Origin: Gammaproteobacteria bacterium
Lineage (GTDB): Bacteria; Pseudomonadota; Gammaproteobacteria; Tenderiales; Tenderiaceae
Reading direction: 5' to 3'
DNA: 64,000 bases
Assembly (NCBI GenBank): GCA_016200485.1
Contig: JACQEP010000001.1
Coordinates: 9,901-73,900 of the forward strand
Part shown: piece after piece, positions 7,089-58,823 of the stretch
Numbering within the stretch: position 1 is the stretch's first letter
Layout of the letters: each line of letters starts with the position of its first letter
Notes under the pieces: generated by a model
What the model saw: the letters and a program-made list of their open reading frames with translations, nothing else
What the model was told of the DNA's origin: nothing
The model's database searches: none
Position numbers and translations under genes: made by a program

Positions 7089-8573
7089 ATGAAAAAAATT
7101 TACAATATTTTATTTGTCGCCAGCGAGGCGCATCCGTTAATCAAAACCGGCGGCCTGGGCGATGTCGCGGGTAGTTTACCACCCGCCCTCAAGGCACAGC
7201 ATCACGATGTACGCATCATCATGCCGGGCTATCGCGCGGCAATGCAAAAGGCAGAAAAACTGTGTTTTGCGAGTTTGAAACTGGAAGGCGTCCCGGAAAC
7301 GGTGCGGTTGCTGACCGGCAAACTTCCCGGCACCAATGTCCAACTCTATCTAGTAGATTCACCCGCCCATTTCGACCGCCCCGGCGGCCCCTATCTCGAC
7401 CCGGATGGTCATGACTGGGGCGATAATGCCGAACGCTTCGCCACCTTTGCCCAGACAGTAGTCAGCGTTGCTCTCAACAAAGCGGGGCAGGACTGGATAC
7501 CCGACATCGTTCACTGCAACGACTGGCAAAGTGGACTGATCCCGGCCATGCTCTCGCTTTATCCGCGTCGTCCGGCAACGGTGTTTACCATCCATAATTT
7601 GGCCTATCACGGCCATTTTCATAAGGACACCTTCGCCCTGCTGTCACTCCCGCATCAACTATGGGGAATTGACGCCCTGGAATTTTATGATGGCCTCTCC
7701 TTCATCAAAGGCGGACTGGCCTTTGCTGACATGATCAATACCGTGAGCCCGACTTACGCTGAGGAGATCCGCACCCCGGCCTTCGGTCACGGCATGGAAG
7801 GGCTGATCAATCATCGCGGCGACCGGCTACGCGGCATCCTCAATGGCGCCGATTACAAGGAATGGGATCCAGCCACTGATCCCCGTCTGACCGCGCATTT
7901 CGATGCCCGCCACCTCAATGGCAAGGCCACCAACAAACAACACCTGCAAAAACAATTTGGGCTGCGACAAGATCCCAAGGTACCGCTACTGGCCACGGTT
8001 GGGCGCCTGGTCGAACAAAAAGGCGTGGATCTGATCATGGCCAATCTGCCACGGCTCATCGAGCTCGGCGCCCAGATCGCCATTGTCGGCAGCGGCGACA
8101 AAATAATGCAAAAAGCGCTACAGGATTTTGCCAAACCCTATCCCTCGCAAATCGGGGTCTTCATCGGCTTCAACGAGGCACTGGCGCATCTGGTCGAGGC
8201 CGGCGCCGACATGTTCCTCATGCCCTCACGCTTTGAACCTTGTGGATTGAATCAGATTTATAGCCTGCGTTATGGCACGGTACCGATTGTGCGCCACACT
8301 GGCGGGCTGGCAGACACCGTGATCGATGCCAGCGAGGAAAACTTCGCTGCGGGCGCCGCCACCGGTTTTACCTTCGACCACGCCACCCCGGAAGCGCTAC
8401 GCATAGCCATTGATCGTGCCGTCGATTGTTACCGTCATCAGCCCCAGCGCTGGCAGAGCCTGATCACCAATGGCATGAAGCAGGATTTCAGCTGGCACCA
8501 GAGCGCCAAGCACTATCTGGACCTCTATGCCGAGGCGCTGAGCCATCGCGACCGCGCCGTCCACGCGGGTTAA
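7089..8573 (+). CDS. glgA: Glycogen synthase (ADP-glucose type)
   Basis: 494-aa ORF with N-terminal SEAHPLIKTGGLGDVAGSLP (KTGGL motif) and C-terminal GT1 features (PSRFEPCGL). Confidence 0.95.
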   Translation: MKKIYNILFVASEAHPLIKTGGLGDVAGSLPPALKAQHHDVRIIMPGYRAAMQKAEKLCFASLKLEGVPETVRLLTGKLPGTNVQLYLVDSPAHFDRPGGPYLDPDGHDWGDNAERFATFAQTVVSVALNKAGQDWIPDIVHCNDWQSGLIPAMLSLYPRRPATVFTIHNLAYHGHFHKDTFALLSLPHQLWGIDALEFYDGLSFIKGGLAFADMINTVSPTYAEEIRTPAFGHGMEGLINHRGDRLRGILNGADYKEWDPATDPRLTAHFDARHLNGKATNKQHLQKQFGLRQDPKVPLLATVGRLVEQKGVDLIMANLPRLIELGAQIAIVGSGDKIMQKALQDFAKPYPSQIGVFIGFNEALAHLVEAGADMFLMPSRFEPCGLNQIYSLRYGTVPIVRHTGGLADTVIDASEENFAAGAATGFTFDHATPEALRIAIDRAVDCYRHQPQRWQSLITNGMKQDFSWHQSAKHYLDLYAEALSHRDRAVHAG

Positions 8574-15775: not shown

Positions 15776-16174
15776 TCATTGCGACTTGTTCTTGAGTCGC
15801 TCGTTCAGGGCCTCGTTCAATGAATCCAAAACTGAACCCATCACCAGACCGGCAAAGCGATGATAGAGCTCTAACGTACAAGATACCGGCGTCTGCAAAT
15901 CGCTTCGGCCCTGGCTGGCGAAATCCTGCCACGCCATTACCGGTTGATCCTCGGCAGTGGCGTCCACACACAACCAGATCCGATCATCCAATATCACCTC
16001 GAGACCGCGATGTCCCGGTACCGCCACTCGCAATGGTGTACCTAGCCGTTTCAATCCCAGTCGCATATGGTCGTAAACCGATGCCTCGATAGTCTTGCGC
16101 ATGGTGCGCAGTGCCAGTGGTGTTGTTCGACTGGGCAAGATCGCCGCCTCCGTTTCACTTCTACCCATCGCCAT
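15776..16174 (-). CDS. Hypothetical protein (132 aa) between cbbX and the aldolase gene
   Basis: It is the longest ORF in this gap and has the same orientation as the operon. Its ATG is preceded by GAAGGG and overlaps the cbbX 3' end by 14 nt. Composition is balanced and non-repetitive. I recognise no family. Confidence 0.45.
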
Positions 16175-17087
16175 CGCTTCGCCCTTCGCTGAATACTCGG
16201 CTGGCCAATACGTCCTCTGCCTCGATTGAGATCAAATCGGTCTTGGTAAGTTTCTTTTTAGGATTGGCAAATAGCCGGTTGGCCTGACGCAGGCGCGCAC
16301 GGTCCAGGGCGTTGCGCACCGAGCGGGCGTTGGCGAAGTGTGGCTGGGTCATCCGCAGCTTGAGGTATTCAGAAAACGCTTGCTCGCCGTTTGGGGTGAA
16401 GCGATAGTTCTGGCGGACCAGCATGAGCTTGGCGATTTGCAACAGTTCCTGCGCCGTATAGTCTGGAAAATCGACGTGATGGGCGATGCGCGAACGCATA
16501 CCAGGATTGCTTTGGAAAAACTTATCCATCTTGTCCTTGTAGCCAGCCAGGATCACCACCAGATCGTCGCGATTGTTTTCCATGACCTGCAACAGGATCT
16601 CGATGGACTCTTGTCCGTAGTCGCGCTCGTTTTCGGGTTTGTACAGATAATAGGCTTCATCGATGAACAGCACGCCGCCCATCGCTTTCTTGATGACTTC
16701 TTTCGTTTTCGGCGCAGTATGACCAATGTACTGACCGACAAGATCGTCGCGCGTCACCGTGACGAGATGACCTTCGCGCACGTAGCTAAGCCGCTTTAAT
16801 ATCTCACCCATGCGCATCGCTACCGTAGTCTTGCCAGTACCTGGATTGCCGGTGAAACACATGTGCAAAGTTGGCGTCTCGGCGCTTAACGAAAACTGCT
16901 TGCGCAGACGATCGACCAACAGCAGCGCTGCAATCTCGCGGATGCGAGTTTTAACGGGCTTGAGACCGATCAGTTCCTGGTCGAGTTTATCCAGTATCTC
17001 CTGAATATTGGAGGCCTTGAATTCGGCCTCCAGATCCACTTGTGTCTCGTCCCCAATGTCGATTTGCGAAGACTGGCTATTACTCAT
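16161..17087 (-). CDS. cbbX: Red-type RuBisCO activase, AAA+ ATPase CbbX
   Basis: 308 aa with Walker [12 protein letters not shown], Walker B VLFIDEAY, and CbbX-typical [22 protein letters not shown]. It lies directly downstream of cbbLS. Confidence 0.9.
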
Positions 17088-17159
17088 GCAATGGTTTCCT
17101 GTTTTAACGACAAGTGGTGGACCTTAAGGCCCACCACCGTTTTAGTCGCCTACTTCAAA

Positions 17160-17594
17160 TCAATACCGTTCTCCTTCCGGTTTATCCGTGGCATAGCTAT
17201 GCACGGTGTAGCGGATATTGCGTCCCTCTGTCTCATGCCGCACTAGCCCGAAACCTGGCTCGTTCTTGGGGCGGTTGACAAGAAACGACATGCGGGGCGT
17301 TTCCCAGCCGCGTGTGGAATCGAATGCCGTGACCCGGACGTAATGATTGGAAAAGGTCTTGCGGCAGTTGTTGATCTCCATGAGGATCCCCGCTGGATCC
17401 TTGAGATCGAACATGGGCATGCCGAACATTTCCCAATAGGTGTTGCGTGGATGCGGATCGTCGGTGTACTCGACGTTTACAGCCCATCCGTTTTTGAGCG
17501 CGTATTTGATCTGCGCGGTGATCTGCGCATCGGTCAGATCGGGCAGAAACGAAAACTGCCCCTGCGTAATGCGATTGCCGTGATTGGTCATCAT
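17160..17594 (-). CDS. cbbS: RuBisCO small subunit, red-type
   Basis: 144 aa with [15 protein letters not shown]...[11 protein letters not shown] and the extended C-terminal region typical of form IC/ID small subunits. Confidence 0.95.
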
Positions 17595-17618
17595 GGTAAT
17601 TTCTCCTGTATTCCTTGT

Positions 17619-19118
<1,500 letters not shown>

Positions 19119-19180
19119 TTAATGCGAGACGGTGTGCTCTAGCCGGATTGACTATAGGGAGGATCTACGATAAAAAACAC

Positions 19181-19217
19181 TTAATAGTTTTTATTGTCAT
19201 GATTTACTAGAGTAAAT
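19181..19217. promoter_or_regulatory. Candidate LysR/CbbR operator motifs in the cbbL-cbbR divergent region
   Basis: TTA-ATAGTTT-TTA (TNA-N7-TNA form) is at 19181-19193. The palindrome ATTTACT-AG-AGTAAAT is at 19202-19217. Both lie in the 118-bp AT-rich intergenic region. Confidence 0.4.
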
Positions 19218-20196
19218 GGTTGGCATGCACCTCACCCTACAACAATTGCGACTCTTCGAATCGGTTGCGCGCCTGCGCAACTTCACGCGCGCGGCCGAGG
19301 AACTGTTTCTCACTCAGCCAGCGGTGTCGATCCAGATCAAACGACTCGAAGACAGCGTAGGTCTTCCGTTGTTCGAGCAGATCGGCAAGCGGATTTATCT
19401 CACCGAAGCAGGGCAGGCGATGTATCAGGCGGTCCAGGATGTGCTGGGGCGACTCGAGACCATGAAGGATGAGGTGCTGAATCTGCAAGGTGTCATCGGA
19501 GGTCCGCTCAGAATCTCGGTAGTCACTACCGCAAAATATTTCATGCCACATCTACTGGGGGCCTTCCTGCAGGCGTACCCACGAGTTGAACCCCATCTGT
19601 CGGTAACCAACCGGGAAAAAGTCATCCAGCGTCTGACGGAAAACAAGGATGACATGGTCATCATGGGCCACATCCCCGACGATCTGAATGCCGAGACGCA
19701 CCCGTTCCTGGAAAACACGTTGGTGGTGGTCGCCAGCCCCCAGCATCCGCTCGCACGCAGCAAACGCATTCCCCTGCAACGCATCGCGGAGGAACGGCTG
19801 CTGGTGCGCGAATCCGGATCGGGCACGCGGCAGGCCGTAGAGCGCTTATTCGTAAAGCAACAGCTGGAGATCAATCCCTACATGGAACTCGGCAGCAGCG
19901 AGGCAATCAAGCAGGGCGTCATGGCGGGCTTGGGGATATCGGTGCTGTCGCTCTACAGCCTGCGTCTGGAACTGGCGGGGCACCATGTGTCGATTCTGGA
20001 CGTCGAAGGATTCCCCCTCCGCTATCACTGGCATGCCGTGCATCTCAAAGGCAAAAAGCTGTCGCTCGCCGCCAGGACGTTTCTTGAATTCATTCTCAAG
20101 GAAAGCAGCCGCCTGTTGGAAAACACGACGGCCAATGTAAAACAATACAGCACGGACGCCGCCGCTAAGCCGGCACGCGGCAAGCCACGACGCTAA
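19216..20196 (+). CDS. cbbR: LysR-family transcriptional regulator, CbbR-like
   Basis: N-terminal HTH (LQQLRLFESVARLRNFTRAAEELFLTQPAVSIQIKRLE), divergent from cbbL. The ATG at 19225 is an alternative start. Confidence 0.85.
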   Translation: MVGMHLTLQQLRLFESVARLRNFTRAAEELFLTQPAVSIQIKRLEDSVGLPLFEQIGKRIYLTEAGQAMYQAVQDVLGRLETMKDEVLNLQGVIGGPLRISVVTTAKYFMPHLLGAFLQAYPRVEPHLSVTNREKVIQRLTENKDDMVIMGHIPDDLNAETHPFLENTLVVVASPQHPLARSKRIPLQRIAEERLLVRESGSGTRQAVERLFVKQQLEINPYMELGSSEAIKQGVMAGLGISVLSLYSLRLELAGHHVSILDVEGFPLRYHWHAVHLKGKKLSLAARTFLEFILKESSRLLENTTANVKQYSTDAAAKPARGKPRR

Positions 20197-32737: not shown

Positions 32738-34360
32738 TTAATTGGCGCGGCCATAGATACGCAAGGCCCAATTCTGGAAATCACCAGTAAAATAAGTTGC
32801 ATTGAGATCTGCTACCGTCAGGCGCCATTTTCCAAGTGAACTCTCTCCCATATGGCGCACACTGGTAAACACCCAATGATCGTAACGCTGCGTGCAAATG
32901 TTGGTAAGCGAGGGACAATTATGCTGTTCCGCCAGGACGCTCTGCCCGCCGCTGGGCGCTGTCAGTACAATTTTCAGATCACCGGGGGACACATGGTTAG
33001 CGGCGGTAAATTCGATCTCGACACGCTCGACAACAATATCGCTACCAATAGTAATCTCACTGAAAATCCCCGTGGGGTCGTTATCGGGAATTTGGAGGCC
33101 GGAACTGGCGCTGCCGATCACCATCACCTGCGCCCCGACATTAACCCAGGACTTTGCCAAATTAACCGCAGCAGCAGCATCCACGACACCAAAACCATAT
33201 TTATGGTTGATGTGATATTGAGGCTGCCCAGCCTTGTTGTGGGTTACCGTCCAATCAGAATCTGTTGGATGATTCTTGCGCGCGCTTTGTGCCAAAATCA
33301 GCGGCACATCGCGCCAACCGAGATTAGGATTAGCCTCTAACATCAATGCCACAATACCGGAAACCAGCGGCGTGGCGGCCGAGGTTCCGGCAAAAGCCCC
33401 CGTATAACTTTGGTCTGCATAATCAACTGCATTATTCCCATTCGCGAGATTAATGGTATTGTTATAACCTGAAGCCCCGGTGACATCCGTCGTCGTCAGT
33501 CCAATTGATTGCCCACCCGGCGCACAAACCAACAGGTTAGCACCCTTCTCAGAATAATCGGTCTTGGTGCCTTGCTCACCGACCGCACACACTGCGATCA
33601 CATGCCGATCATTGGCTTGATTATCGTAATTGCTGTTATCGACATTGTTCTTACCACCATTGCCTGCAGCCCAGACATAGATCGTACCCTTGCCGCCACG
33701 CCCAGTCGTAACACCGGCTTGAATTGAGTCGCGCCAAAGTGTATCGGGTGTCGAAATCACTTCACCGCTACCATCGCTGTTATCACCCCAGCTGTTGCTC
33801 GACACCGAGACGCTATTGGCATTCAACGTCATCGCTTTGGCCATATCTGAGGTCGATACAGGGTTCGTCCATAACAGGTTATAACCCGCCAAGGTGACGC
33901 GCGGCGCGGCGCCGCGTCCGCCGATATTGTTACCGGCACTGGCACCAATCAATCCTGCGACTGCGGTACCATGGCCTTGAGACGGATTCGTGGGCGAGGG
34001 ATCGTGACCACCCGTCTTGAAATCGTAGCTTGATGTCAGCGAAACATTGGCAGAGAGATCAGGATGCTTAATCTCAAGACCATCATCGACCACCGCTACT
34101 GTCACGCCCTGCCCCCCGGAACCTGCATTCCACACCGGCAGCACATTGATATCTTCACCCGGAATTGTGTTGAAAAACTGACCTTGATTGTATAAATGCC
34201 ATTGATCTGCGAATAGCGGATCATTGCCGAGCAAGGTACCATATTGTGCCGGCACGATAGATGCACTACTGCTACCTCCACCGCCACCGCCACAACTCGA
34301 GAGAGTTACTACAATGAACGCAATGACTCCGTGCCGCCACACGGCAATCTGTCGTGACAT
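32738..34360 (-). CDS. Kexin/furin-like S8 serine protease lipoprotein with a C-terminal P-domain and no N-terminal prodomain
   Basis: 540 aa with lipobox LSSC followed by a Gly/Ser linker. The mature-type start DPLFADQWHL follows directly. Catalytic motifs are VAVVDDG, GHGTAVAG, SNSWG, AAGNGG and AGTSAATPLVSG. The P-domain pattern is GDLKIVLTAPSG...GKWRLTVAD...WALRIYG. Confidence 0.9.
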   Translation of the reverse strand: MSRQIAVWRHGVIAFIVVTLSSCGGGGGGSSSASIVPAQYGTLLGNDPLFADQWHLYNQGQFFNTIPGEDINVLPVWNAGSGGQGVTVAVVDDGLEIKHPDLSANVSLTSSYDFKTGGHDPSPTNPSQGHGTAVAGLIGASAGNNIGGRGAAPRVTLAGYNLLWTNPVSTSDMAKAMTLNANSVSVSSNSWGDNSDGSGEVISTPDTLWRDSIQAGVTTGRGGKGTIYVWAAGNGGKNNVDNSNYDNQANDRHVIAVCAVGEQGTKTDYSEKGANLLVCAPGGQSIGLTTTDVTGASGYNNTINLANGNNAVDYADQSYTGAFAGTSAATPLVSGIVALMLEANPNLGWRDVPLILAQSARKNHPTDSDWTVTHNKAGQPQYHINHKYGFGVVDAAAAVNLAKSWVNVGAQVMVIGSASSGLQIPDNDPTGIFSEITIGSDIVVERVEIEFTAANHVSPGDLKIVLTAPSGGQSVLAEQHNCPSLTNICTQRYDHWVFTSVRHMGESSLGKWRLTVADLNATYFTGDFQNWALRIYGRAN

Positions 34361-44549: not shown

Positions 44550-44915
44550 ATGAGTAGCTTGTACGATCAACTGGGCGGCGACGCCGCCGTTAACGCCGCT
44601 GTCGACATCTTCTATCGCAAGGTGCTGGCCGACAAACGTATCAATCACTGGTTCAAAGACACCGACATGGCCAAACAGGCGTCCAAGCAAAAAGCCTTTC
44701 TGACCATGGCCCTGGGCGGTCCCAACAAATATTCCGGCAAAGATATGCGTGAGGGTCATGCCCATCTGGTCAAGAAGGGCCTGAGCGACAAAGACTTCGA
44801 CGCCGTGCTGGAGAATCTTGGCGCCACCCTGAAAGAACTCAAGGTACCCGATAATCTTATCGCCCAAGCCGCCAAACTGGTTGAAAGCACTCGTAAAGAT
44901 GTCCTAGGCCGTTAA
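44550..44915 (+). CDS. glbN: Group I truncated haemoglobin (trHbN)
   Basis: MSSLYDQLGGDAAVNAAVDIFYRKVLAD...FLTMALGGPNKYSGKDMREGHAHL carries the 2-on-2 globin pattern (B10 Tyr, proximal His). The ATG at 44550 is preceded by AGGAG. The ORF-track start at 44496 adds 18 basic residues and is unlikely. Confidence 0.85.
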   Translation: MSSLYDQLGGDAAVNAAVDIFYRKVLADKRINHWFKDTDMAKQASKQKAFLTMALGGPNKYSGKDMREGHAHLVKKGLSDKDFDAVLENLGATLKELKVPDNLIAQAAKLVESTRKDVLGR

Positions 44916-44932: not shown

Positions 44933-45901
44933 ATGCCGAAAGTCAGACTCGGAGATCACGAATATCTCCTCGCGGAAAATGAGTCGATACTCCAGGGTCT
45001 GACCCGGCATGGGGTTACCATTCCATCCTCGTGCCAGAAAGGGATATGCCAGACCTGTCTGATGCGTGCCATTGCCGGCACACCCCCGGCGGAATGTCAG
45101 GAAGGACTTAGCCCCACGCAAAAACAACAGGGCTATTTTCTTGCCTGTAGCTGCAAGCCGAAAACTGATTTGACGATCGCCCTCCTCGACGACAGCGCGC
45201 GCAACAAGATGCAGGCACGCATCACTGACAAGACCCTGCTCAGCCCAAGCATTATGCGCCTGCGCTTGCAGCCCGAAAAATCGTTCGATTATCGCGCGGG
45301 TCAGTTCTTGAATCTGCATCGGCCTGATGGATTGATTCGCAGTTATTCTATCGCCAGCATCCCTAGCGAGCCCTTTCTCGAACTACACATTGAGCGCCTT
45401 GATAACGGCAAGATGAGTGGCTGGATTCACGATGAGGTCACTGTGAATACCGAGGTTGAGATCGATGGCGCCCACGGCAATTGTTTTTATCTCGAAGGCA
45501 ATCCCGAACAACCGCTGCTGCTGATTGGTACGGGATCTGGGTTGGCGCCATTATGGGGCATTTTGCGCGATGCCTTGGCGCACAATCACCAAGGTGACAT
45601 CCATTTGTTTCATGGTTCACACAGCCGGGACAAACTCTATCTGGGTGAAGCATTACGCCAATTAGCGCGCGACTATCCCCAAGTTCACTACACCCCCTGC
45701 CTCTCTGGCAGCGAACAACACGGCTATGCCCATGGCCGCGCCAATGAGCTTGCGCTTGCGCAACTAGGGTCATTAAAAGGTTGGCGAATATTTTTGTGCG
45801 GCCATCCGGAGATGGTCAAAAACACGCAAATGGAGGCTTTTCTGGCAGGCGCCTCGATGCAGGATATCTACGCCGATCCGTTCACGATCAGCGCAAGCTG
45901 A
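44933..45901 (+). CDS. Ferredoxin--NAD(P) reductase-type flavoprotein with an N-terminal plant-type 2Fe-2S domain
   Basis: 322 aa with the cluster motif C-x4-C-x2-C...C (SSCQKGICQTC...ACSC), FAD motif RSYSIAS and NAD(P) motif LLLIGTGSGLAPL. It has BenC/MMO-reductase-like architecture and starts 17 nt after glbN. Confidence 0.8.
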   Translation: MPKVRLGDHEYLLAENESILQGLTRHGVTIPSSCQKGICQTCLMRAIAGTPPAECQEGLSPTQKQQGYFLACSCKPKTDLTIALLDDSARNKMQARITDKTLLSPSIMRLRLQPEKSFDYRAGQFLNLHRPDGLIRSYSIASIPSEPFLELHIERLDNGKMSGWIHDEVTVNTEVEIDGAHGNCFYLEGNPEQPLLLIGTGSGLAPLWGILRDALAHNHQGDIHLFHGSHSRDKLYLGEALRQLARDYPQVHYTPCLSGSEQHGYAHGRANELALAQLGSLKGWRIFLCGHPEMVKNTQMEAFLAGASMQDIYADPFTISAS

Positions 45902-45903
45902 AC

Positions 45904-46518
45904 CTAACCCGCTTCTTGGTCGATATCGTCCGCAAGGTTTGACTGTTTTACATCCGTATTATTTTCAACATCACGCCGCCACGGATATTCCTGTCCCAAA
46001 AGCCTGTTGATTACAACAGCGGATATGAGCAGTATCAGCACATTCAACATCACTGGCGCCAGCACAAACCAGTAACCTAGCGAATGAATGCTGTTCCCAC
46101 CAATCACTGCCGAAATTGCTGCCGCACCACCAGGTGGATGCAAACTGCGGGTCAGCAACATCAATAAAATCGCGCCCGCCACCGCCACAGCGCCCGCCAG
46201 CATGTGATTGGGAATGTACTGGGCACAGGTCACACCAACTGTCACAGAGACCAGGTGCCCCATAAATACCGGGTAGGGCTGAACCAGAGGGCTATGAGGC
46301 GCAGCGAACAATAGCACCCCCGCTGCTCCCATTGAGGCTACCAAAATTGGTACATCCTGCCCCGACAATACCGAAGCGCTGACCATGAACACCGCCACTT
46401 GCGCCAGAAAGGCTCCCAGCACCGGGATCAGGATTTCCTTCATGGAACGTTTTGGAATTACGTCCATCCCCAACCAGGATGCACAGGCGCAAAACCAGCC
46501 TCGCTTTGGTTTGGTCAA
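45904..46518 (-). CDS. HPP-family integral membrane protein (family includes nitrite transporters)
   Basis: 204 aa, about 4-5 TM helices, with the eponymous SLHPPGGAAA motif. The start could be an internal Met (MDV... or MKE...). Confidence 0.75.
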   Translation of the reverse strand: MTKPKRGWFCACASWLGMDVIPKRSMKEILIPVLGAFLAQVAVFMVSASVLSGQDVPILVASMGAAGVLLFAAPHSPLVQPYPVFMGHLVSVTVGVTCAQYIPNHMLAGAVAVAGAILLMLLTRSLHPPGGAAAISAVIGGNSIHSLGYWFVLAPVMLNVLILLISAVVINRLLGQEYPWRRDVENNTDVKQSNLADDIDQEAG

Positions 46519-46817: not shown

Positions 46818-48047
46818 ATGCAGCACCAGGATCAACAACCTTGGCTCAAACCAGTTGCAACGCTCATGGCGACACTTGGTTGCCGCCACTTCGTGACGTT
46901 GACCGGCATTTACGTCATCACAATTATCACAGTACTGGGTTTGATGACACTTGGAATATTGGCTTCACCGTCGCCAACTGATCTTGGTACCTTCATCATT
47001 CTGTCAGTTACATCGATTATTTACCTGCTGTGTGGCTTTCTTGACTATCTTCGCACCCAGGTCTGTGCGCTTAGCGCGCAGGCGCGTGAACTTTCCGCTG
47101 GCCAGTTCGGCAATGTAACTTACTCCACGGGCAACGACGAATTGAGCATGTTCCAGAACTGCCTGGCACAACTGGCGAAAGATCTGGAACGTATGCTCAA
47201 CCGAATTGGCGAAGCCGCAACCGAGTCCCATGCCGCAGCGCGGGCCGAAACCGAGATCACCAAACGTACGTCCGCAAGCGCCACCAATCAGGCAGCCCGC
47301 GTCTCAGAAATCGCCACTGCAATCGAACAAATGTCCGCCAGCATCAACGAAGTCGCAGACCAGATAAAAGTCACTGAACACAATGCCAAAACAACTCAAG
47401 ACCTGGCCAATCAAGGCACCGCCATTATCCACGACACCGTCAACTCGGTACACAGCATTGCTGATACCGTCAGTCAGGCCGCAACACAGGTTACAGCGCT
47501 GAGCGAGCACTCAAAAGAGATCGGGAAAATTATTGATGTTATCGAAGGCATATCTTCACAAACCAACCTCTTGGCTTTAAATGCCGCGATTGAAGCTGCC
47601 CGCGCCGGCGAGCATGGTCGAGGATTTGCTGTCGTATCGGACGAAGTACGGCAGCTTGCAATCCGTACCCATGAAGCCACTGAAAAAGTCAGCACCATGA
47701 TCACTGGCGTGCAAGGCGAAGTTGGCAAAATCATCAACAGTTTCCGCAGCATCGAAGGTGAAGTCACACGCAGCACCGAGATGGGCGACCATGTTAATCA
47801 AATGCTGTCTTCGATCAATGATGGTGCCAATACAACCGCCAACCATATGCATAGCGCGGCGATCGCAATCACCGAGCAATCCTCTGTCTGCGCCGACATT
47901 GCCCGCAATATCGAGCACATCAGTCAACTCGCGATCGGCGCCAGCGCTGATGCCGGCGAAACACTGGATACCTCACTCTATCTTGAGTCACTCTCGAACC
48001 AGGTGCTACATCAATTAACCGGCCAGTCAGCGGCTGAGGGGCAATAG
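46818..48047 (+). CDS. Methyl-accepting chemotaxis protein lacking a periplasmic ligand-binding domain
   Basis: 409 aa with two TM helices separated by only ~8 residues (SPSPTDLG), a HAMP-like linker, and an MCP signalling hairpin ([36 protein letters not shown]). Confidence 0.9.
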
Positions 48048-48050
48048 CAG

Positions 48051-49028
48051 ATGGCAATGACAGCCTCATTATTGTTCACATTAATTTTCTTCGGTTGCAT
48101 CATCTTTCTCTGGCGCCAACGCCAACAGGTCGTCTATTTGGAAACTATTATCCGAGGGATGAGCCATGTCGAACTCGCCCGCAATCTACTGGAACATCTG
48201 CCGCAACATCGCGGCATGGCCAATGCGCTGCTGAATGGCGATAAAAGCTTCCAGGAAAAAGCCTGTACGATGCAATCCACCATTGATCGTGACCTGGAAG
48301 CGCTTAAAACCGCCATCAGCAGCAATGCCGGACAATCAGTCATCAATACTCATCAGACGCAACTGGAAACAGGCTGGAAAAGCCTGAAAAGTGATCTCAA
48401 GGGATTAAGCGCTGCCAGTAGCTTTGAGCGCCATACCGCCTTGATAACACAGGTAATCTATCTCATCAGTGATATCGCCGATGAAATGAGAATCACGGCC
48501 TACCCGGATGAAACCATGCGCCCTATCGTGCATGCCAATTTAATGGTTTTGCCAACCATGGTCGAAATTTCCGGCCAGGCGCGAGGCATTGGCGCTGGCG
48601 TCGCAGCCAAAGGCAAAATCACAACTGCACTCCGCATCAAAATCAAATTTCTCCACGAACATCTTAATACCGCCCTGCTCGATGCCCACCGTACCATCGA
48701 AACCAGTCTCAATCGAGTTAAGGACAAACTTCATTTTGATCTTTCCTCGCTCCAGGCCAGCCGCACAGCCACTCAGCGATTGCTTGACACCATCAAAGAC
48801 CAGTTACTCAAGGAGGAAGCCATCAGCATCTCGGCCTCGGACTATTTTGCCATCGGCTCGGCAGCATTCGACAATAATCTCCGGCTCTTTGATCAACTGA
48901 CCCAAGCGTTAAAGAAGGATTTACAGCAACGCGCACCCTCCCTCAAATCCGCCCATCTGCGGTCGATATTCTTCTGTGCAGGGCTGATGGCGGCCTCATC
49001 TGCCACTGGCTGGTGGTTACTGAGTTAG
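48051..49028 (+). CDS. Stand-alone NIT (nitrate/nitrite-sensing)-like domain protein bracketed by N- and C-terminal TM helices
   Basis: 325 aa. TM1 spans about residues 5-21 and the last TM about 305-323. The ~280-aa region between them has NIT-like landmarks (LPQHRGMANALLNGDKSF, HTALITQVIYLISDIA, VEISGQARGIGAGVAAKG, SASDYFAIGSAAFDNNL). There is no output domain. The start is 3 nt after the MCP stop. Confidence 0.7.
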   Translation: MAMTASLLFTLIFFGCIIFLWRQRQQVVYLETIIRGMSHVELARNLLEHLPQHRGMANALLNGDKSFQEKACTMQSTIDRDLEALKTAISSNAGQSVINTHQTQLETGWKSLKSDLKGLSAASSFERHTALITQVIYLISDIADEMRITAYPDETMRPIVHANLMVLPTMVEISGQARGIGAGVAAKGKITTALRIKIKFLHEHLNTALLDAHRTIETSLNRVKDKLHFDLSSLQASRTATQRLLDTIKDQLLKEEAISISASDYFAIGSAAFDNNLRLFDQLTQALKKDLQQRAPSLKSAHLRSIFFCAGLMAASSATGWWLLS

Positions 49029-49103
49029 ACAACCATAATTTCTGCACTTAATGATGGGAATCACCGTCGCTACCAATAAACGACGGCAACCGCAAGGATT
49101 TAG

Positions 49104-51539
49104 ATGATGATAAAAATTCTCGACCTGCCCGTACCACCCTTTAGCGCCCCGGACAACCCACCGGTACTCGCTGGCGCCAACACCACTGTTTTTCTACCCA
49201 ATGGCAGTCGCCTAGAGGGCAAACTGGAAGAATTTGATGGTGCTAAAGGATCGATCACGCTCATTGAAAACAATGGCAAAAGTTCCCGCTTAACCCTGAT
49301 CGAGATCAAGGCCTTACAGCTTAACGAACCATTGCAGTGGATGCAGGATACGGCACTCGACGAGACCAATCGGGCCAGCATGAAAATGCCCACCGACACG
49401 CAGGACTTCATTATCACCTTCAAGGATCGGAGTGTATTGCGCGGCAAGACTTATGGCTCTCGCGTTGAAAAGTTCGGAATTCATTTATTCAAACAACACA
49501 CAGCAAACCAATACCTACACCAATACATCCATATTTTTATTCCAAAAACGGCCATCGAGAGCAATCTCATCGGTGATCAATTAGGTCAAATCCTGGCAAA
49601 AGACCAAAAGGTTCCGCCAAGGGAAATCGAAGCTGCACTGATCGAACAAAAGGAAAACCGCGGGAAACAGATTGGCGATTTCTTAATCAGCAAAAAAATT
49701 ATCAGCACCGAACAATTGGAGCAGGCATTAAAACGGCAGAAATCAATGCCTCAGCTCAAACTGGGGGAGATATTGATCAGTGAGGCCTTGATCACAGAGG
49801 CACAACTCCAAGAAGCCCTCATTGACCAGAAAAAATCTCGGCGCATGCCGCTAGGTGAGCTTCTGGTTCAAAAAAAGCTCGTCACTCGCGAACAAATTCA
49901 ACAAGCGCTCGCCAGGAAGCTAGGCATCCCATTTGTCAATATCCAGGATTTCCAGGTCACGCCTGAAACCATACGCGTCGCCCCAGCTTCACTTACCTTT
50001 AAACATAAGGTCGTCCCGCTATATCAATATGAAGGGAAGATTGCAGTTGCCATCGAAAACCCCATGGACTGGGAAGCATTGGACGCCCTTAAATTTCACA
50101 CTAACAAATACATTGAGCCAGTAATGGCAACGGCCGAAGACATCAACTGGGCACTCCAATTTTATTACTCATCAGATGACGTCCTGACAAGCATCGATCA
50201 GTTGGCTGATCAGCAGGTTGAAGACGACAACTTTCTTGAGGAAAACATCCTCAATGCCAAAGAAGATGCCGAAGTTTCGGATAATATCGTCGTCAAAATG
50301 ATTAACAAAATCATACTTGATGCTTATCAGAAAGGGGTATCCGATATTCACATTGAACCATACCCGGGAAAACAGCGAACAGTCGTTCGTTTTAGAAAAG
50401 ACGGCGAGATGTTTAAATATCATGATTTCCCTCACCAATATCGAAGCGCATTAACCTCCCGCGTAAAGGTCATGGCACGCCTTGATATTTCTGAAAAGCG
50501 CAAACCACAGGACGGTAAAATCAACTTCAAGCAATTCGGCCCGGCGAATATTGAGTTGCGGGTAGCCACATTGCCTACCTCCAACGATCTGGAAGACGTG
50601 GTCATGCGCATCCTCAGCAGTGGACGCAATCTACCGATCAGTGCCTTGGGCTTAGAAACCTATAACCGGGACAGGCTACTAGAGGCAATCTCTCAGCCTT
50701 ATGGCCTATTCCTGGTCTGCGGCCCCACGGGATCCGGAAAAACAACCACGCTTCATTCCATCCTTGGGCATCTCAATGATGAGCAAACAAAAATCTGGAC
50801 CGCAGAGGATCCGGTTGAAATCACACAAGCGGGGCTACGCCAGCTGCAGATCAACCCCAAGGTAGGTCTGACCTTTGCCACAGCAATGCGCTCATTCTTG
50901 CGCGCTGACCCTGACATTATCATGATCGGTGAAATGCGCGATCCAGAGGCGGCGTCGGTCTGTATTGAAGCCTCATTAACAGGGCATCTCGTATTATCAA
51001 CACTGCATACCAACTCCGCCGCCGAAAGCATTATTCGCCTCCTTGATATGGGGATGGACCCATTCAATTTTGCGGATGCCCTGCTTGGAATTTTGTCACA
51101 ACGACTGGCGAGAACACTGTGCCCCAGTTGCAAGAAGCCGTATACACCTCATGACGAGGAACTCAATCACCTCGCTCGCGAGTATTGTGCCGAACTGGTG
51201 GGCTTTACCGCCAGTGCCGAAGAACTTCAGGCCACCGCCAACAAGAAGATTGCGGAATGGCGCGAAAAGCATAAAGGCAAGGACGGTCAGATTTCACTCT
51301 TCAAACCCATAGGCTGCCCGGAGTGCAACGAAACAGGTTATCGCGGCCGCATCGGTCTCCACGAACTGTTGGTTGCCACCCCAGAAATCAAGCACCTTAT
51401 TCTTGAGCGTACCCTCATTACTGAGATACAGCGCACTGCCATCAAACATGGTTTGCGCACGCTGAAACAAGACGGTATTGAGAAAGTATTACAAGGATAT
51501 ACTGACTTCCCACAGATTCGGGCGGTTTGTATTAAATAA
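49104..51539 (+). CDS. GspE/PilB/MshE-family secretion ATPase with an extended N-terminus
   Basis: 811 aa with Walker A GPTGSGKTTTL, Asp/Walker B DPDIIMIGEMRD, His box LSTLHTNSA, and a tetracysteine motif (CPSCKKPY...CPECNETGYRGR). Upstream of the T2SSE_N region are four 24-residue MshEN-like motifs and a 158-residue segment of unknown type. Confidence 0.9.
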   Translation: MMIKILDLPVPPFSAPDNPPVLAGANTTVFLPNGSRLEGKLEEFDGAKGSITLIENNGKSSRLTLIEIKALQLNEPLQWMQDTALDETNRASMKMPTDTQDFIITFKDRSVLRGKTYGSRVEKFGIHLFKQHTANQYLHQYIHIFIPKTAIESNLIGDQLGQILAKDQKVPPREIEAALIEQKENRGKQIGDFLISKKIISTEQLEQALKRQKSMPQLKLGEILISEALITEAQLQEALIDQKKSRRMPLGELLVQKKLVTREQIQQALARKLGIPFVNIQDFQVTPETIRVAPASLTFKHKVVPLYQYEGKIAVAIENPMDWEALDALKFHTNKYIEPVMATAEDINWALQFYYSSDDVLTSIDQLADQQVEDDNFLEENILNAKEDAEVSDNIVVKMINKIILDAYQKGVSDIHIEPYPGKQRTVVRFRKDGEMFKYHDFPHQYRSALTSRVKVMARLDISEKRKPQDGKINFKQFGPANIELRVATLPTSNDLEDVVMRILSSGRNLPISALGLETYNRDRLLEAISQPYGLFLVCGPTGSGKTTTLHSILGHLNDEQTKIWTAEDPVEITQAGLRQLQINPKVGLTFATAMRSFLRADPDIIMIGEMRDPEAASVCIEASLTGHLVLSTLHTNSAAESIIRLLDMGMDPFNFADALLGILSQRLARTLCPSCKKPYTPHDEELNHLAREYCAELVGFTASAEELQATANKKIAEWREKHKGKDGQISLFKPIGCPECNETGYRGRIGLHELLVATPEIKHLILERTLITEIQRTAIKHGLRTLKQDGIEKVLQGYTDFPQIRAVCIK

Positions 51540-57293: not shown

Positions 57294-58823
57294 ATGTACA
57301 AGATTCTGGGCGCCGTTGCGCTGCCGTTGGCCGTATTGTTGCTGTCAGGTTGTGGCGGTGAGACCACCGCTGAAAACAATTCGCAACAAGATCAACCTGC
57401 GCAAACCACAACGCCTGCCGCGACCACAACCTATGTCACGACCAAGGCGTTTGTCGCGTCGCTTCAGACATCTGGACCAACCGCAGATGCCGACCCGGCA
57501 CCCGTCCCCACTGCCGACGAGATGGCGGACATCGCTAGTTTCAATAATGAATTTGCTATCCGCCTCTTGCAGAATCTGACGGGAAGCGGCAGCACTGCCT
57601 TCGCTGTTCACAGCCGCATACAACAGTTAGCCATGCTGACTACAGACGCCAACGACTCACAAAAATCGCAGACCATTAAACTGCTTGCCGGCAATATCGA
57701 TCAAGAACAAATCGGCAAATTGTTACCTGATTTAAACATGACATCGCTACTCAATACCGCTTCCACTGCTCAGGACGGCGGTTACTTATCAAAGTTCTCG
57801 ACCTGGGGACAAGAGAATTTTTTATTTCCGGAATCTTCTCTCAAGGCACTGAACAGCAATTTTGGCTCCGAGGTTTTCGCCGTCGATTTTACCAATGACC
57901 CCTATGGCACCAACCTTCTGATTGAAACCTGGCAATCTCAACTCACAGGCTATGTGACCAACATCATCAACACCACCGATAAAACCAGATTGGCCTTTTC
58001 CAGCGCCAACAGACTCAACAGCAACTGGCTCAGCAATCCCGCATCGATAACTCAAGGCGACTTCCATGGCACCAACATCGTCACCATGAATTATTTTGAT
58101 CTGAGCCAGAACGCACTCATCAAAGAGACCTCTGATTTTGTTGCGGGTGAATTCCCCCTGGAAAAAGGTAACAACCTATTCTTGCTAATGCCGCACAGCG
58201 CAGCATGCCCCTCGACGCCAGCGATCGCAAATAATGCACTAGCCTTTGACCACCCCTTTGCGTTCTTCGTTATTAACAATCAAACGGGATTGATCATCTA
58301 CTCCGGCCTTTATAGCAAACCCGCTGCTGACGCATGTGACGCCAACGCTATGGCAGGCTTCTTGAGCAAACTAAGCACCAACTCTCTAAAAATCACCCGT
58401 GGCCAGTTAACAGCCACCCAACAAACACTGTATGTGCCACAGTTTAATTTTGGCTACATAGAATCTATCCCTGGAATACAACCACCACTAAACAGCGATG
58501 CATCATTCTTATACTTCGATCACTTCACCAGCAAGATAGCAATCCTGCTCGACAACCAGGGCATCACTATCAGCAGCGGCAACCTTACCGCTGTAAACCT
58601 GCATGAATCCTTTGCCTCTTCGAACGCAGACATCAAAGGTGTTTACGTGGGACAAAATATGAACGCTACTGTCGGACAGGAATTTGGTTATCAGAACTTC
58701 GACAACATCAGCGATGCATTGGCCCTGATCAGCAAGTTTGGTTTGACAGCAGGGTCGACAAGCGGCACGAGCGGTTGGCCAGCCGTCTTCGGCACCACTA
58801 CGACTGACGGTATCGGATTCTAA
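57294..58823 (+). CDS. Serpin-fold lipoprotein with non-canonical segment order and a C-terminal tail
   Basis: 509 aa with lipobox LLSGC and a Thr/Pro/Ala linker. A serpin-like N-part follows (FNNEFAIRLLQNL...SEVFAVDFTND...NLFLLMP). The serpin C-terminal signature AFDHPFAFFVINNQTGLIIYSGLYSKP then sits at residues 317-343. It is followed by another 166 residues containing LYVPQFNFGY and SKIAILLDNQGITISSG. Confidence 0.7.
   Translation: MYKILGAVALPLAVLLLSGCGGETTAENNSQQDQPAQTTTPAATTTYVTTKAFVASLQTSGPTADADPAPVPTADEMADIASFNNEFAIRLLQNLTGSGSTAFAVHSRIQQLAMLTTDANDSQKSQTIKLLAGNIDQEQIGKLLPDLNMTSLLNTASTAQDGGYLSKFSTWGQENFLFPESSLKALNSNFGSEVFAVDFTNDPYGTNLLIETWQSQLTGYVTNIINTTDKTRLAFSSANRLNSNWLSNPASITQGDFHGTNIVTMNYFDLSQNALIKETSDFVAGEFPLEKGNNLFLLMPHSAACPSTPAIANNALAFDHPFAFFVINNQTGLIIYSGLYSKPAADACDANAMAGFLSKLSTNSLKITRGQLTATQQTLYVPQFNFGYIESIPGIQPPLNSDASFLYFDHFTSKIAILLDNQGITISSGNLTAVNLHESFASSNADIKGVYVGQNMNATVGQEFGYQNFDNISDALALISKFGLTAGSTSGTSGWPAVFGTTTTDGIGF

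Follow-up and report, generated by a model that had tools for sequence, protein, structure and literature searches.

A sensor-less MCP and a NIT-only membrane protein, encoded by adjacent genes in the 64-kb stretch of DNA analysed here (the window), probably constitute a two-protein chemoreceptor, in which the NIT domain would lie in the cytoplasm and sense nitrite or nitrate, which would have arisen by excision of that domain from a fused receptor, and from which the ATPase encoded downstream would be separate. The split pair recurs in many uncultured proteobacteria, frequently near nitrite and nitric-oxide genes. Its real recurrent partners are an HPP-family gene, with globin and reductase genes farther upstream; this partnership was missed by the first-pass annotation of the window, in which HPP was treated as a bystander.

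Organization of the locus

The features of the window considered here are the following.

44550..44915, plus strand: truncated (bacterial-like) globin gene (Pfam Bac_globin, E 2.6e-19)
44933..45901, plus strand: Fer2-FAD-NAD ferredoxin-reductase-type gene (Pfam Fer2, FAD_binding_6, NAD_binding_1)
45904..46518, minus strand: HPP-family membrane protein gene (Pfam TM_HPP, E 6e-46)
46818..48047, plus strand: sensor-less MCP gene, 409 aa (Pfam MCPsignal, hydropathy)
48031..48053, plus strand: MCP/NIT junction (junction sequence)
48051..49028, plus strand: NIT-only membrane protein gene, 325 aa (Pfam NIT, AF2 model, Foldseek)
49029..49103, plus strand: NIT/ATPase spacer, 75 nt
49104..51539, plus strand: long GspE/PilB-family ATPase gene, 811 aa (domain assignments, structure model and fold search of the N-terminus)

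The ORF coordinates confirm the three same-strand genes originally described for this locus, with intergenic gaps of 3 nt (MCP to NIT) and 75 nt (NIT to ATPase), and the ORF and Pfam annotation bears out the neighbours then named, the HPP gene lying divergently on the upstream side of the MCP gene and msrQ/msrP convergently downstream of the ATPase gene. At the MCP/NIT junction, a GAGGGG Shine-Dalgarno sequence is placed within the last MCP codons; next comes the TAG stop, which 3 nt separate from the ATG of the NIT gene. This arrangement suggests that the two genes are translationally coupled.

The MCP matches Pfam MCPsignal (E 1.5e-40), has no sensor domain, and shows an NCBIfam CtpM-like match over residues 93-403. 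Specifically, it is composed, in order, of an N-terminal cytoplasmic motif of 15 residues, a TM hairpin (helices at ~26-48 and ~58-78 by hydropathy), a HAMP-like linker and the MCP signalling domain. The loop between the two helices, ASPSPTDLG, is 9 residues long, in keeping with the earlier description of a tiny outer loop and no ligand domain of its own. The same architecture is found in 18 further full-length partner MCPs, and many partner MCPs lack a full-length HAMP linker.

The NIT-only protein

The second ORF belongs to the NIT family. It scores 29.5 bits against PF08376 (gathering cutoff 24.9) and carries no output domain, as had been claimed, and its AF2 model (pLDDT 93.2) has NasR (4AKK) as the only significant PDB match in Foldseek (probability 1.00, TM-score 0.61, identity 13-14%), PilJ structures giving insignificant matches only in the fold search with this model. 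Across the NIT-only subfamily, Pfam NIT scores lie near threshold, from none to 45 bits. The 40 NIT-only homologues measure 221-337 aa, most of them 279-337. In the window protein, TM1 (residues 4-20) precedes the double four-helix bundle of the NIT domain, and a weakly hydrophobic helix lies at the C-terminus. In the family alignment 22 columns are invariant, the two putative ligand motifs PQHRGMAN (51-58) and GQARGIG (175-181) among them, and the invariant residues Q52, H53, R54, G55, E172, Q176, R178 and G179 fall on helices 1 and 5 of the AF2 model.

NasR, a NIT-ANTAR nitrate/nitrite-responsive antiterminator, shares the conserved arginines of helices 1 and 5, which form its proposed nitrate pocket, and its NIT domain is cytoplasmic and governs output through direct contacts between proteins (PMC7496416). 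NasR is a soluble protein that includes its RNA-binding output as a fused domain, whereas the window NIT protein is membrane-tethered, without an output domain and paired with an MCP. In McpN, the P. aeruginosa PilJ-type nitrate chemoreceptor (PMC6381276), a helical-bundle sensor of an N-oxyanion likewise signals to an MCP, with an arginine as key ligand contact, but McpN has its four-helix PilJ domain in the periplasm and fused to the MCP in one chain, while the window NIT protein carries a double bundle and is encoded apart from its MCP.

Conservation and origin of the split pair

The pair consists of a 385-416-aa hairpin MCP followed by a 275-335-aa NIT-only protein, and was found in the same gene order at 23 further distinct loci of Gamma- and Betaproteobacteria, down to 28-33% identity. 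Its hosts are Ca. Tenderia, Chromatiales, Woeseiaceae, Ectothiorhodospiraceae, Gallionellales (with two tandem intact copies), Sterolibacterium, an unclassified betaproteobacterial MAG (UBA9220) and Psychromonas sp. PT13. The junctions span -7 to +35 nt, many being 4-nt overlaps, and tight or overlapping start/stop junctions occur at no fewer than 20 pair loci. One MCP gene (L010) is frameshifted.

The nearest outgroup of the split pair is the canonical fused NIT-MCP (TM1-NIT-TM2-HAMP-MCPsignal; P. aeruginosa PA4520, and 632-707 aa in L019, L022-24, L036, L039, L041 and L042), in which the same NIT family is joined to an MCP signalling domain. An HMM built on the first 45 residues of the split MCPs matches the extreme N-termini of fused NIT receptors (E 6e-7 to 6e-4), and these outrank all unrelated ORFs in a 380-ORF background; the N-terminal cytoplasmic motif and TM1 are common to both forms. 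In addition, residues 57-398 of the window MCP align to the post-NIT region (TM2 to C-terminus) of fused receptors at 32-35% identity. These sequence comparisons indicate that the hairpin MCP N-terminus is homologous to that of the fused NIT receptor, pointing to an excision of the NIT domain. The fused receptor is one polypeptide, whereas the window pair is two, with the transducer gene ahead of the sensor gene; the proposal of a chemoreceptor split in this order is strengthened by the order kept at the 23 further loci, by the fused outgroup and by the fused-type N-terminal motif and TM1 retained in the MCP.

A comparable division of labour is found in the SRI/HtrI and SRII/HtrII systems of haloarchaea, where a hairpin MCP-family transducer, its extracellular domain small or absent, takes its input from a distinct sensor protein embedded in the membrane, and where the genes are adjacent and co-transcribed, the transducer gene first. 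The window pair resembles them in its separate sensor, hairpin transducer, adjacent genes and transducer-first order, and differs from these archaeal pairs, whose sensor is a seven-helix retinal protein, whose signal is light and whose contact lies within the membrane.

Topology of the NIT-only protein

Contrary to the periplasmic placement first proposed, the NIT domain is predicted to be cytoplasmic, a topology read from the positive-inside rule only. None of the 31 NIT-only proteins analysed has K/R before TM1 and each has 2-6 directly after it (e.g. IRRTKRRRQ in P0035); in total, 99 K/R fall in the 15 residues after TM1 and 1 after TM2. In the window protein, TM1 begins at residue 4 with no K/R ahead and WRQRQQ behind, and an in-frame stop lying 2 codons ahead of the ATG leaves no room for a longer N-terminus. 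The fused NIT-MCPs show the opposite bias at TM1, with a basic N-terminal segment that the window NIT protein lacks, 32 K/R before the helix and 17 after it within an acidic stretch. Since K/R ahead of TM2 are common in fused periplasmic NIT domains too, only TM1 discriminates topology.

TM2 of the window protein is weakly hydrophobic (KD ~1.2) and is missing from family members of ~287 aa, so that the notion of a NIT domain held between two TM helices is not confirmed. In the AF2 model TM1 runs on into the first NIT helix and the last NIT helix into TM2, the very arrangement of periplasmic sensor modules; the model geometry therefore suits either orientation.

The downstream ATPase

The third gene encodes a secretion/pilus ATPase, as annotated from the outset, matching Pfam T2SSE (E 2.5e-121) and MshEN. 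Two N-terminal SH3/Sm-like barrels (~25-73 and ~100-156, from a structure model and fold search) are followed by four tandem 24-residue MshEN-type c-di-GMP motifs (~159-273), a T2SSE_N/MshEN domain (273-359) and a T2SSE ATPase with the tetracysteine motif. MshE (V. cholerae), PilB (M. xanthus, PMC5544727) and GspE have the same T2SSE core with tetracysteine, MshEN and 24-residue c-di-GMP motifs, but the window ATPase is longer (811 vs ~570 aa), has four c-di-GMP motifs instead of two, scores below the equivalog cutoffs (PilB 555 vs 676 bits, GspE 474 vs 630 bits), is solitary, and carries the extra barrel pair, an N-terminal domain restricted to its own family (>100 full-length homologue clusters). 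The family is a widespread one of solitary GspE/PilB-like ATPases that probably bind c-di-GMP. The large ORFs of the entire window include no gene for a pilin, platform protein, secretin or peptidase and no che gene, which extends the earlier statement that pilin, platform, secretin and prepilin peptidase genes are missing nearby, and no pilin or platform genes lie beside the ATPase in 6 sampled contexts.

The ATPase is a solitary, independently conserved neighbour outside the conserved pair, and the proposed coupling of a GspE-family ATPase to the MCP and NIT genes is not supported, since beyond the closest clade the three genes are not conserved as neighbours. It follows the pair at only four other loci (L002, L003/4, L008, L010), all trio loci forming one clade with shared wider synteny from valS to purL, and 13 pair loci for which 4.7 kb or more of downstream sequence is available lack it. 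In each of 5 independently sampled contexts, the ATPase orthologue (54-64% identity) stands without the pair. In L044, which has the window synteny, a 64% identical ATPase comes straight after the reductase gene, and HPP, MCP and NIT genes are missing; L045 has HPP and no pair; more distant orthologues adjoin rpoA/rplQ or smc. The gap ahead of the ATPase gene is 75-166 nt, and a conserved ~60-nt element upstream of it is found in L003, L008, L010 and the pair-less L044. A terminator-like hairpin is lacking from the NIT/ATPase spacer in the window, where the one promoter-like match (49026-49055) is weak; the ATPase gene may thus be co-transcribed with the pair in this lineage.

Neighbouring genes of the pair

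By comparing 24 split with 13 fused loci, HPP was found near the pair in 10/24 vs 0/13 (Fisher p = 0.0067), globin in 9/24 vs 0/13 and the reductase in 7/24 vs 1/13; apart from that one weak reductase match, these neighbours belong to the split form only. HPP is the commonest conserved neighbour of the pair, and the HPP/globin association holds in under half of pair loci, which are phylogenetically non-independent. The HPP, globin and reductase associations survive rearranged gene orders (L011-L013, L015, L018, L030, L031), and a globin gene was located near the pair by tblastn in L003, L008, L010, L011, L012, L013, L015 and L018. The reductase, which scores 215 bits, under cutoff, against the NCBIfam iron-sulfur-binding ferredoxin reductase, is likely the globin's partner. 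In addition, L011-L013 carry a gene for an NsrR-like Rrf2 regulator. HPP has been described as a nitrite-transporter family (Maeda 2014, as cited in PMC7438415).

Alternative explanations

An unlikely but serious alternative is that the same split receptor holds its NIT domain in the periplasm, senses external nitrate/nitrite and signals to the hairpin MCP via intramembrane TM-TM contacts, like sensory rhodopsin II/HtrII. The ancestral fused receptors carry a periplasmic NIT domain, the continuity of TM and NIT helices in the model is that of a periplasmic sensor module, and a cytoplasmic contact surface on the MCP is so far hypothetical. However, the charge pattern around TM1, invariable in 31/31 proteins, would hinder Sec translocation, a signal-peptide n-region is lacking, TM2 is weak or missing in part of the family, the full-length HAMP linker that many partner MCPs lack is the usual relay for periplasmic signals, and the best structural relative, NasR, is cytoplasmic.

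We regard as quite improbable the original model, in which MCP, NIT protein and ATPase form one unit or operon in this clade and feed nitrate/nitrite chemosensory input into a pilus or secretion motor that binds c-di-GMP. In Pseudomonas, type IV pilus ATPases are under the control of PilJ-type chemosensory systems, a precedent to which the shared strand, the 75-nt gap without a terminator-like hairpin and the order kept at four other loci can be added; these are opposed by the confinement of the trio to one syntenic clade, the contexts of L044, L045 and the distant orthologues, the 13 pair loci without such an ATPase, and the gaps and upstream element that accompany the ATPase gene. It is even harder to credit that the NIT-only gene is a remnant without function, or codes for an unrelated membrane protein, left beside the MCP by an accident of decay after duplication of a fused receptor. 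The support for an origin by domain loss, the frameshift in L010 and the marginal Pfam scores fit such decay, but it is contradicted by intact ORFs of constant length down to 28% identity, by the invariant columns that include both putative ligand motifs, by the confident AF2 model, by the tight junctions and by the tandem copies in Gallionellales.

Proposed mechanism

The domain identities, the conserved gene pairing, the independence of the ATPase, the enrichment of neighbours and the charge bias are direct results of the analysis. For the preferred reading, a split receptor with a cytoplasmic NIT domain, we infer that the two proteins interact physically, and likewise the ligand, the topology and a connection to taxis. 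The ancestor would have been a TM1-NIT-TM2-HAMP-MCP receptor, of which one derivative lost NIT and the other kept little else. The NIT-only protein would act as the sensor, tethered to the inner membrane by a single N-terminal TM helix in N-out orientation, and the weak C-terminal helix may aid tethering in some members. Its cytoplasmic double four-helix bundle would bind a small anion, most plausibly nitrite or nitrate, through the arginine motifs QHRG (helix 1) and GQxRG (helix 5) as putative ligand contacts; against this, no binding of nitrate or nitrite was seen with the NIT domain of PA4520, a fused chemoreceptor (PMC6381276). A ligand-dependent contact of NIT with the adjacent hairpin MCP would then set the MCP signalling state and, in turn, CheA activity and motility.

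In conclusion, the neighbouring genes, namely those for the HPP nitrite-transporter family, the globin with its reductase and the NsrR-like repressor, suggest that the signal perceived by the pair is the intracellular nitrite/nitrate load, tied to nitrite uptake or NO detoxification.

A conserved MCP–NIT gene pair

The first-pass annotation had read three consecutive genes as one system, in which a methyl-accepting chemotaxis protein (MCP), a periplasmic NIT sensor and a secretion-type motor would be coupled. ORFs of 409, 325 and 811 aa are indeed present on the forward strand where it had placed them:

46818-48047, + strand, hairpin MCP, 409 aa; sole domain match MCPsignal PF00015, E 1.5e-40
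48051-49028, + strand, NIT-only protein, 325 aa; Pfam NIT PF08376
49104-51539, + strand, ATPase, 811 aa; T2SSE, E 2.5e-121, and an MshEN domain

The neighbourhood of these genes was surveyed in other genomes through a scan with one genome per species, which gave 36 loci, and contigs reached via individual homologues were added (comparison loci carry L numbers below). The loci sort into two classes. In the split class, a NIT-only ORF (273-326 aa) lies directly 3' of a 385-416-aa MCP showing a TM hairpin with a short loop; the fused class comprises the more distant matches, which are canonical TM1-NIT-TM2-HAMP-MCP receptors, mostly of 632-835 aa. Besides the window, the split class counts 23 distinct loci, whose hosts are Ca. 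Tenderia, Chromatiales, Woeseiaceae, Ectothiorhodospiraceae, Gallionellales, Sterolibacterium, an unclassified betaproteobacterial MAG (UBA9220) and Psychromonas sp. PT13. The MCP/NIT junctions range from -7 to +35 nt, with 4-nt overlaps in many loci; in the window, 3 nt separate the MCP stop codon from the NIT ATG, and a GAGGGG sequence lies inside the last MCP codons. The transducer-then-sensor order, which had been remarked upon as reversed in the window, recurs across the split loci. The conserved unit is the pair and not the trio: the pair recurs, while the ATPase follows it in the closest relatives alone, so that the idea of three conserved neighbours does not survive the survey. The conserved pair is real and, as far as our literature search of incomplete coverage reached, undescribed; no description of the long ATPase family was found in that search either.

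Some loci show peculiarities of their own. In Gallionellales (L006/L007 8001-9819 and L027 9890-11708), two tandem NIT-only genes (289 and 288 aa) follow the hairpin MCP, and an HDOD-HD gene lies divergently upstream. Among cultured organisms with complete genomes, Psychromonas sp. PT13 alone carries the pair (at ~1.874 Mb of NZ_CP195153.1); upstream of its pair (L038 6396-6719), a 107-aa ORF with the MCP N-terminal motif and TM1 matches the N-terminal profile of split MCPs (E 5e-12) and may be a fragment of a second MCP copy.

The hairpin MCP and its likely origin

The window MCP contains the PF00015 signalling domain and the hairpin-tip motif, the latter being kept in 19 partner MCPs, and its C-terminal 310 residues resemble CtpM-type receptors. 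Hydropathy places its TM helices at residues ~26-48 and ~58-78, with a loop of 9 residues between them. The flanks (residue 11 and R23 before TM1, RTQ after TM2) indicate an N-in hairpin devoid of a sensor domain. Pfam and NCBIfam searches, together with the length of the loop, reveal no ligand-binding domain of the MCP's own, periplasmic or cytoplasmic; the earlier reading is thus borne out on this point, MCPsignal being the only domain detected. MCPs that lack a sensor domain are a known class, to which the protein belongs.

In most partner MCPs outside the window's clade, the linker between TM2 and the signalling domain is shorter by 8-11 or more residues (L012-L033 alignment), the shortfall reaching 24 residues in L026, and a recognisable full-length HAMP domain is absent from these short-linker proteins. 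At L010 (7217-8403), the partner MCP is spread over two reading frames, with a frame change near 7582-7588, which is either a frameshift/pseudogene or an assembly error of the MAG.

A profile built from residues 1-45 of the hairpin MCPs matches the extreme N-termini of fused NIT receptors (L024, E 6e-7; L036, 2e-6; L023, 2e-6; L035, 2e-5; L037, 6e-4), and these five receptors outrank every unrelated ORF of a 380-ORF background. The remainder of the MCP aligns, with 32-35% identity, to what follows the NIT domain in fused receptors. Taking the two matches together, the hairpin MCP has the appearance of a fused receptor that lost its NIT domain by excision, and the NIT-only gene is a second derivative, in which TM1-NIT(-TM2) was retained. 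A simple gene split by a frameshift or a stop codon was considered and rejected, given that the transducer precedes the sensor and that the MCP keeps its own TM1.

The NIT-only protein is a divergent member of the NIT family

The 325-aa protein passes the gathering cutoff of PF08376 narrowly (29.5 against 24.9 bits, profile positions 2-227 of 239), in agreement with its first assignment to the NIT family. The scores of its relatives straddle the cutoff (45.4, 25.8, 24.8, 22.5 and 19.9 bits, and one without a match). Forty homologues were collected, of 221-337 aa and in the majority 279-337 aa, in which NIT is the sole domain or no domain is detected; in databases such proteins are often labelled "hypothetical" or, wrongly, "methyl-accepting chemotaxis protein". 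The alignment of 31 NIT-only proteins contains 22 invariant columns, concentrated in the related motifs PQHRGMAN (51-58) and GQARGIG (175-181).

The AlphaFold (AF2) model of the protein (pLDDT 93.2, pTM 0.88) is all-helical, with eight helices; TM1 is continuous with the first NIT helix, as is the C-terminal hydrophobic segment with the last one. When this model was compared with the PDB by Foldseek, the two chains of NasR (4AKK) were the sole significant matches (E 1e-5, probability 1.00, TM-score 0.61), the next match having E = 0.05 and PilJ and McpZ lying far down the list. Searching the PDB with a sequence profile made from the NIT alignment did not recover NasR, and its PilJ matches were insignificant. 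The model thus predicts the double four-helix-bundle fold of NasR, and the gene product is a real, divergent NIT family member.

As regards the ligand, the proposed nitrate pocket of NasR uses arginines on helices 1 and 5 (E175/R176) (PMC7496416), and the same two helices bear the invariant Arg motifs in the window model. On the other hand, no binding of nitrate or nitrite was seen with the NIT domain of PA4520, a fused receptor (PMC6381276). By analogy with NasR, we infer nitrate or nitrite as the candidate ligand of the window protein.

The NIT domain is predicted to face the cytoplasm

Charged residues around TM1 differ sharply between stand-alone and fused proteins.

Table. Lys and Arg residues (K/R) flanking TM1
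31 NIT-only proteins: before TM1, 0; in the 15 residues after TM1, 99 (mean 3.2, max 6)
12 fused NIT receptors (10 NIT-MCPs, 2 with other outputs): before TM1, 32, with the motif LNRLRYPxKF; after TM1, 17, with an acidic stretch

In the NIT-only proteins TM1 starts at residues 1-8, and a longer N-terminus of the window protein is excluded by an in-frame TAG two codons 5' of its ATG. Where TM2 exists, the tail after it has 0-10 residues and carries one K/R in total across the family. Applied to the charge bias at TM1, the positive-inside rule predicts that the stand-alone NIT domain is cytoplasmic, the opposite of the periplasmic location first proposed; the two topologies are discriminated by TM1 only, the flank before TM2 being basic in both classes. 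Of the two TM helices said to hold the domain, TM2 is weak in the window protein (KD ~1.2) and missing in the ~287-aa members. The lack of a full-length HAMP linker in many partner MCPs fits an input that does not arrive through TM2.

Genes that travel with the pair

Divergently upstream of the window MCP lies an HPP gene, and further upstream a bacterial-like globin and a Fer2-FAD-NAD reductase:

45904-46518, - strand, HPP gene
44933-45901, + strand, reductase
44550-44915, + strand, globin

In 24 split and 13 fused loci, the ORFs lying up to 7 kb from the NIT gene were all clustered without prior assumptions.

Table. Genes near the NIT gene in split and fused loci
HPP: 10/24 split, 0/13 fused (clustering)
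Ferredoxin-reductase-type protein: 7/24 split, 1/13 fused (clustering)
Globin: 6/24 split by clustering and 9/24 by tblastn, 0/13 fused
ATPase: 3/24 split, 0/13 fused (clustering)

HPP alone reached p = 0.007 in Fisher tests and any of the three p = 0.003, values which are indicative only, the loci being phylogenetically non-independent. The association is kept despite rearrangement, the genes being on the other side or strand in L012, L013, L015 and L018, and HPP lying downstream of the pair on the same strand in L030 and L031. A truncated globin and a reductase can serve as an NO dioxygenase, of which nitrate is the product. In L011-L013 (L011 1202-1630), an Rrf2-family regulator gene separates the NIT gene from the reductase/globin genes; among NCBIfam profiles the regulator comes closest to NsrR, an NO-sensing repressor (143 bits, equivalog cutoff 182). 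Nitrite transport has been shown for HPP proteins of cyanobacteria and of chloroplasts (Maeda 2014, cited in PMC7438415), and one HPP gene of Desulfovibrio is NO-induced (PMC5701242).

In L017 (2651-3667), as well as in L020, L021, L025 and L033, an FGE-sulfatase/SUMF1-like gene lies immediately downstream of the pair on the opposite strand; these loci belong to one gammaproteobacterial subclade without HPP and globin neighbours.

The ATPase is independent of the pair

The ATPase belongs to the GspE/PilB superfamily, yet it is the equivalog of no named member (PilB, GspE or MshE), its scores lying below the cutoffs for PilB TIGR02538 (554.8 against 675.65 bits), GspE TIGR02533 (473.6 against 630.25) and TfpB (415 against 850). 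The MshE-related c-di-GMP motif NF053729 matches in three stretches at 100 bits (cutoff 38). The MshEN motif is a tandem 24-residue unit, (R)LGxx(L/V/I)(L/V/I)xxG(L/V/I)(L/V/I)xxxxLxxxLxxQ, and four tandem copies of this type are readable at residues ~159-273, with the lead Arg replaced by Q, Q, K and P; from this motif, c-di-GMP binding is predicted as probable.

As first noted, pilus and secretion genes are missing near the ATPase: among the large ORFs of the 64-kb window there is no platform (PilC/GspF), pilin/pseudopilin, secretin or che gene. Nor is a pilin, platform or secretin gene adjacent in the contexts of the homologues at L044-L048, the sole exception being L047, with an AAA_22 gene and a secretin gene ~5 kb from the ATPase. 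The order pair then ATPase occurs in L002, L003/4, L008 and L010 alone, the closest relatives (NIT identity at least 40%), which also share the wider valS-to-purL synteny; at 13 pair loci whose downstream sequence extends over 4.7-10 kb, no such ATPase was found. More than 100 clusters of full-length homologues (770-840 aa; 53-91% identity at 99-100% coverage) come from SAR86, Pseudohongiella, Glaciecola and other Gammaproteobacteria. Specifically, L044 (ATPase 64% identity) carries valS, DUF2914, prfC, globin, reductase and ATPase, with purL a few genes on, which is the window synteny minus HPP, MCP and NIT; in L045 (60% identity), globin, reductase and HPP-CBS adjoin the ATPase and the pair is absent; the more distant orthologues adjoin smc or follow the rpoA-rplQ operon. 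On account of these pair-less contexts the ATPase stands on its own, and only a single lineage has the MCP-NIT(-HPP) module upstream of it. It is a solitary and, as its sequence motifs suggest, probably c-di-GMP-binding superfamily member, from a family of long ATPases labelled PilB, GspE or TadA without support.

A word-indexed search with the N-terminal 158 residues of the ATPase gave just two fragments; the exhaustive search used instead (52 representative clusters) showed this region to be almost confined to the N-terminus of its own family. It is predicted (pLDDT 83) to form two small five-stranded SH3/Sm-type barrels. Matches to tandem-Tudor and Hfq structures were taken to reflect fold class only, with tandem TM-scores of 0.2-0.3, so that no function was inferred from them, and a PilZ reading was dropped, no PilZ structure being among the 50 matches listed. 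Residues 10-54 (window 49131-49265), in the first barrel, match a repeat unit of two metagenome-derived proteins (P0168 and P0200), which occurs 15 times in the one of 1828 aa and 12 times in the one of 1196 aa.

Intergenic regions and the rest of the window

Promoter and terminator scans gave counts no higher than in shuffled sequence; in the 75-nt NIT-ATPase spacer there is no terminator-like hairpin, and the promoter match is at chance level. A conserved element of ~60 nt (ATATCTGCCATACTnGCC...CTTTAGAAT...ATCCGATCTA) precedes the ATPase at L003:5100-5238, L008:6395-6532, L010:9430-9567 and L044:7875-8012. It is kept whether NIT or the reductase comes before the ATPase, L044 carrying it without the pair, and it is absent from the shorter spacers of the window and L002. 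It is not taken for an RNA element, there being no Rfam match and no folding signal. The divergent HPP/MCP intergenic region (299 nt) contains a perfect 9-bp inverted repeat at 46711-46719/46729-46737 (CGTTCGTGC / GCACGAACG, 9-nt loop), not conserved in L003 or L008; no FNR/Dnr-type box was found in this region, nor a conserved operator in the alignment of HPP/MCP intergenic regions.

The rest of the window is housekeeping DNA of an autotroph. Downstream of the ATPase lie msrQ, msrP and purL, and elsewhere PGI, G6PD, PEP carboxylase, an Arn-type cluster, LptFG, valS and the following genes (16161-20196), which indicate that the source organism is a CO2-fixing autotroph:

17619-19097, - strand, RuBisCO large subunit
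16161-17087, - strand, CbbX-like AAA+
19216-20196, + strand, LysR regulator, divergent

Serpins are uncommon in bacteria; in the 509-aa protein at 57294-58823, part of a serpin domain is recognised (E 1e-14, profile positions 3-229 of 370). A subtilase with a proprotein-convertase P-domain is encoded separately at 32738-34360.

Discussion

All together, these data make it reasonably probable that the pair encodes a two-protein chemoreceptor to which the ATPase is unrelated. The membrane-tethered NIT protein would sense a cytoplasmic anion, probably nitrite or nitrate, and would modulate the adjacent sensor-less MCP by direct contact. Conserved adjacency and coupled junctions point to a possible SR-Htr-like complex of sensor and transducer. 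In NasR, the NIT domain governs output through direct cytoplasmic contacts (PMC7496416). The same pair with a periplasmic NIT domain, signalling through the membrane as in SRII/HtrII, is rather unlikely: the charge bias at TM1 points inward, and TM2 is weak or missing in part of the family. A functional unit made of the whole trio, restricted to the window's clade, would agree with the gene order kept there and is improbable in view of the ATPase orthologues that occur with no pair nearby; the MCP-NIT-motor system is not upheld, the ATPase being independent. That the genes are a decaying remnant, a reading into which the narrow PF08376 match might be drawn, is scarcely credible beside the invariant NIT motifs.

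Within the two-protein receptor, we put forward a broader scheme as a tentative possibility. The inward-facing NIT sensor would report to the sensor-less MCP the intracellular nitrite/nitrate level, set by HPP transport and by NO dioxygenation through the globin; the pair would be a bacterial counterpart of rhodopsin-Htr, having arisen by fission and topological inversion of a periplasmic NIT chemoreceptor. If true, "metabolism-dependent" N-oxide taxis would thereby gain a direct chemical route.

Precedents exist for MCPs that lack sensor domains, for NIT receptors and for sensors paired with separate transducers; new are their combination, the predicted inverted topology and the N-oxide gene context. 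Few of the common TM-hairpin-only MCPs have an assigned input, and the ligand of NIT, a frequent sensor domain, is not settled. An input would be assigned to one class of orphan transducers by a conserved NIT partner encoded in a gene of its own, and bacteria would offer, with this pair, an example in which sensor and transducer are two polypeptides. Under the predicted topology, evolution would have turned a periplasmic sensor module to face inward. In addition, the context of HPP, truncated globin with reductase and an NsrR-like regulator suggests taxis to nitrite/NO stress in sulfur- and iron-oxidising sediment autotrophs, a lead that is testable in the cultured Psychromonas sp. PT13.
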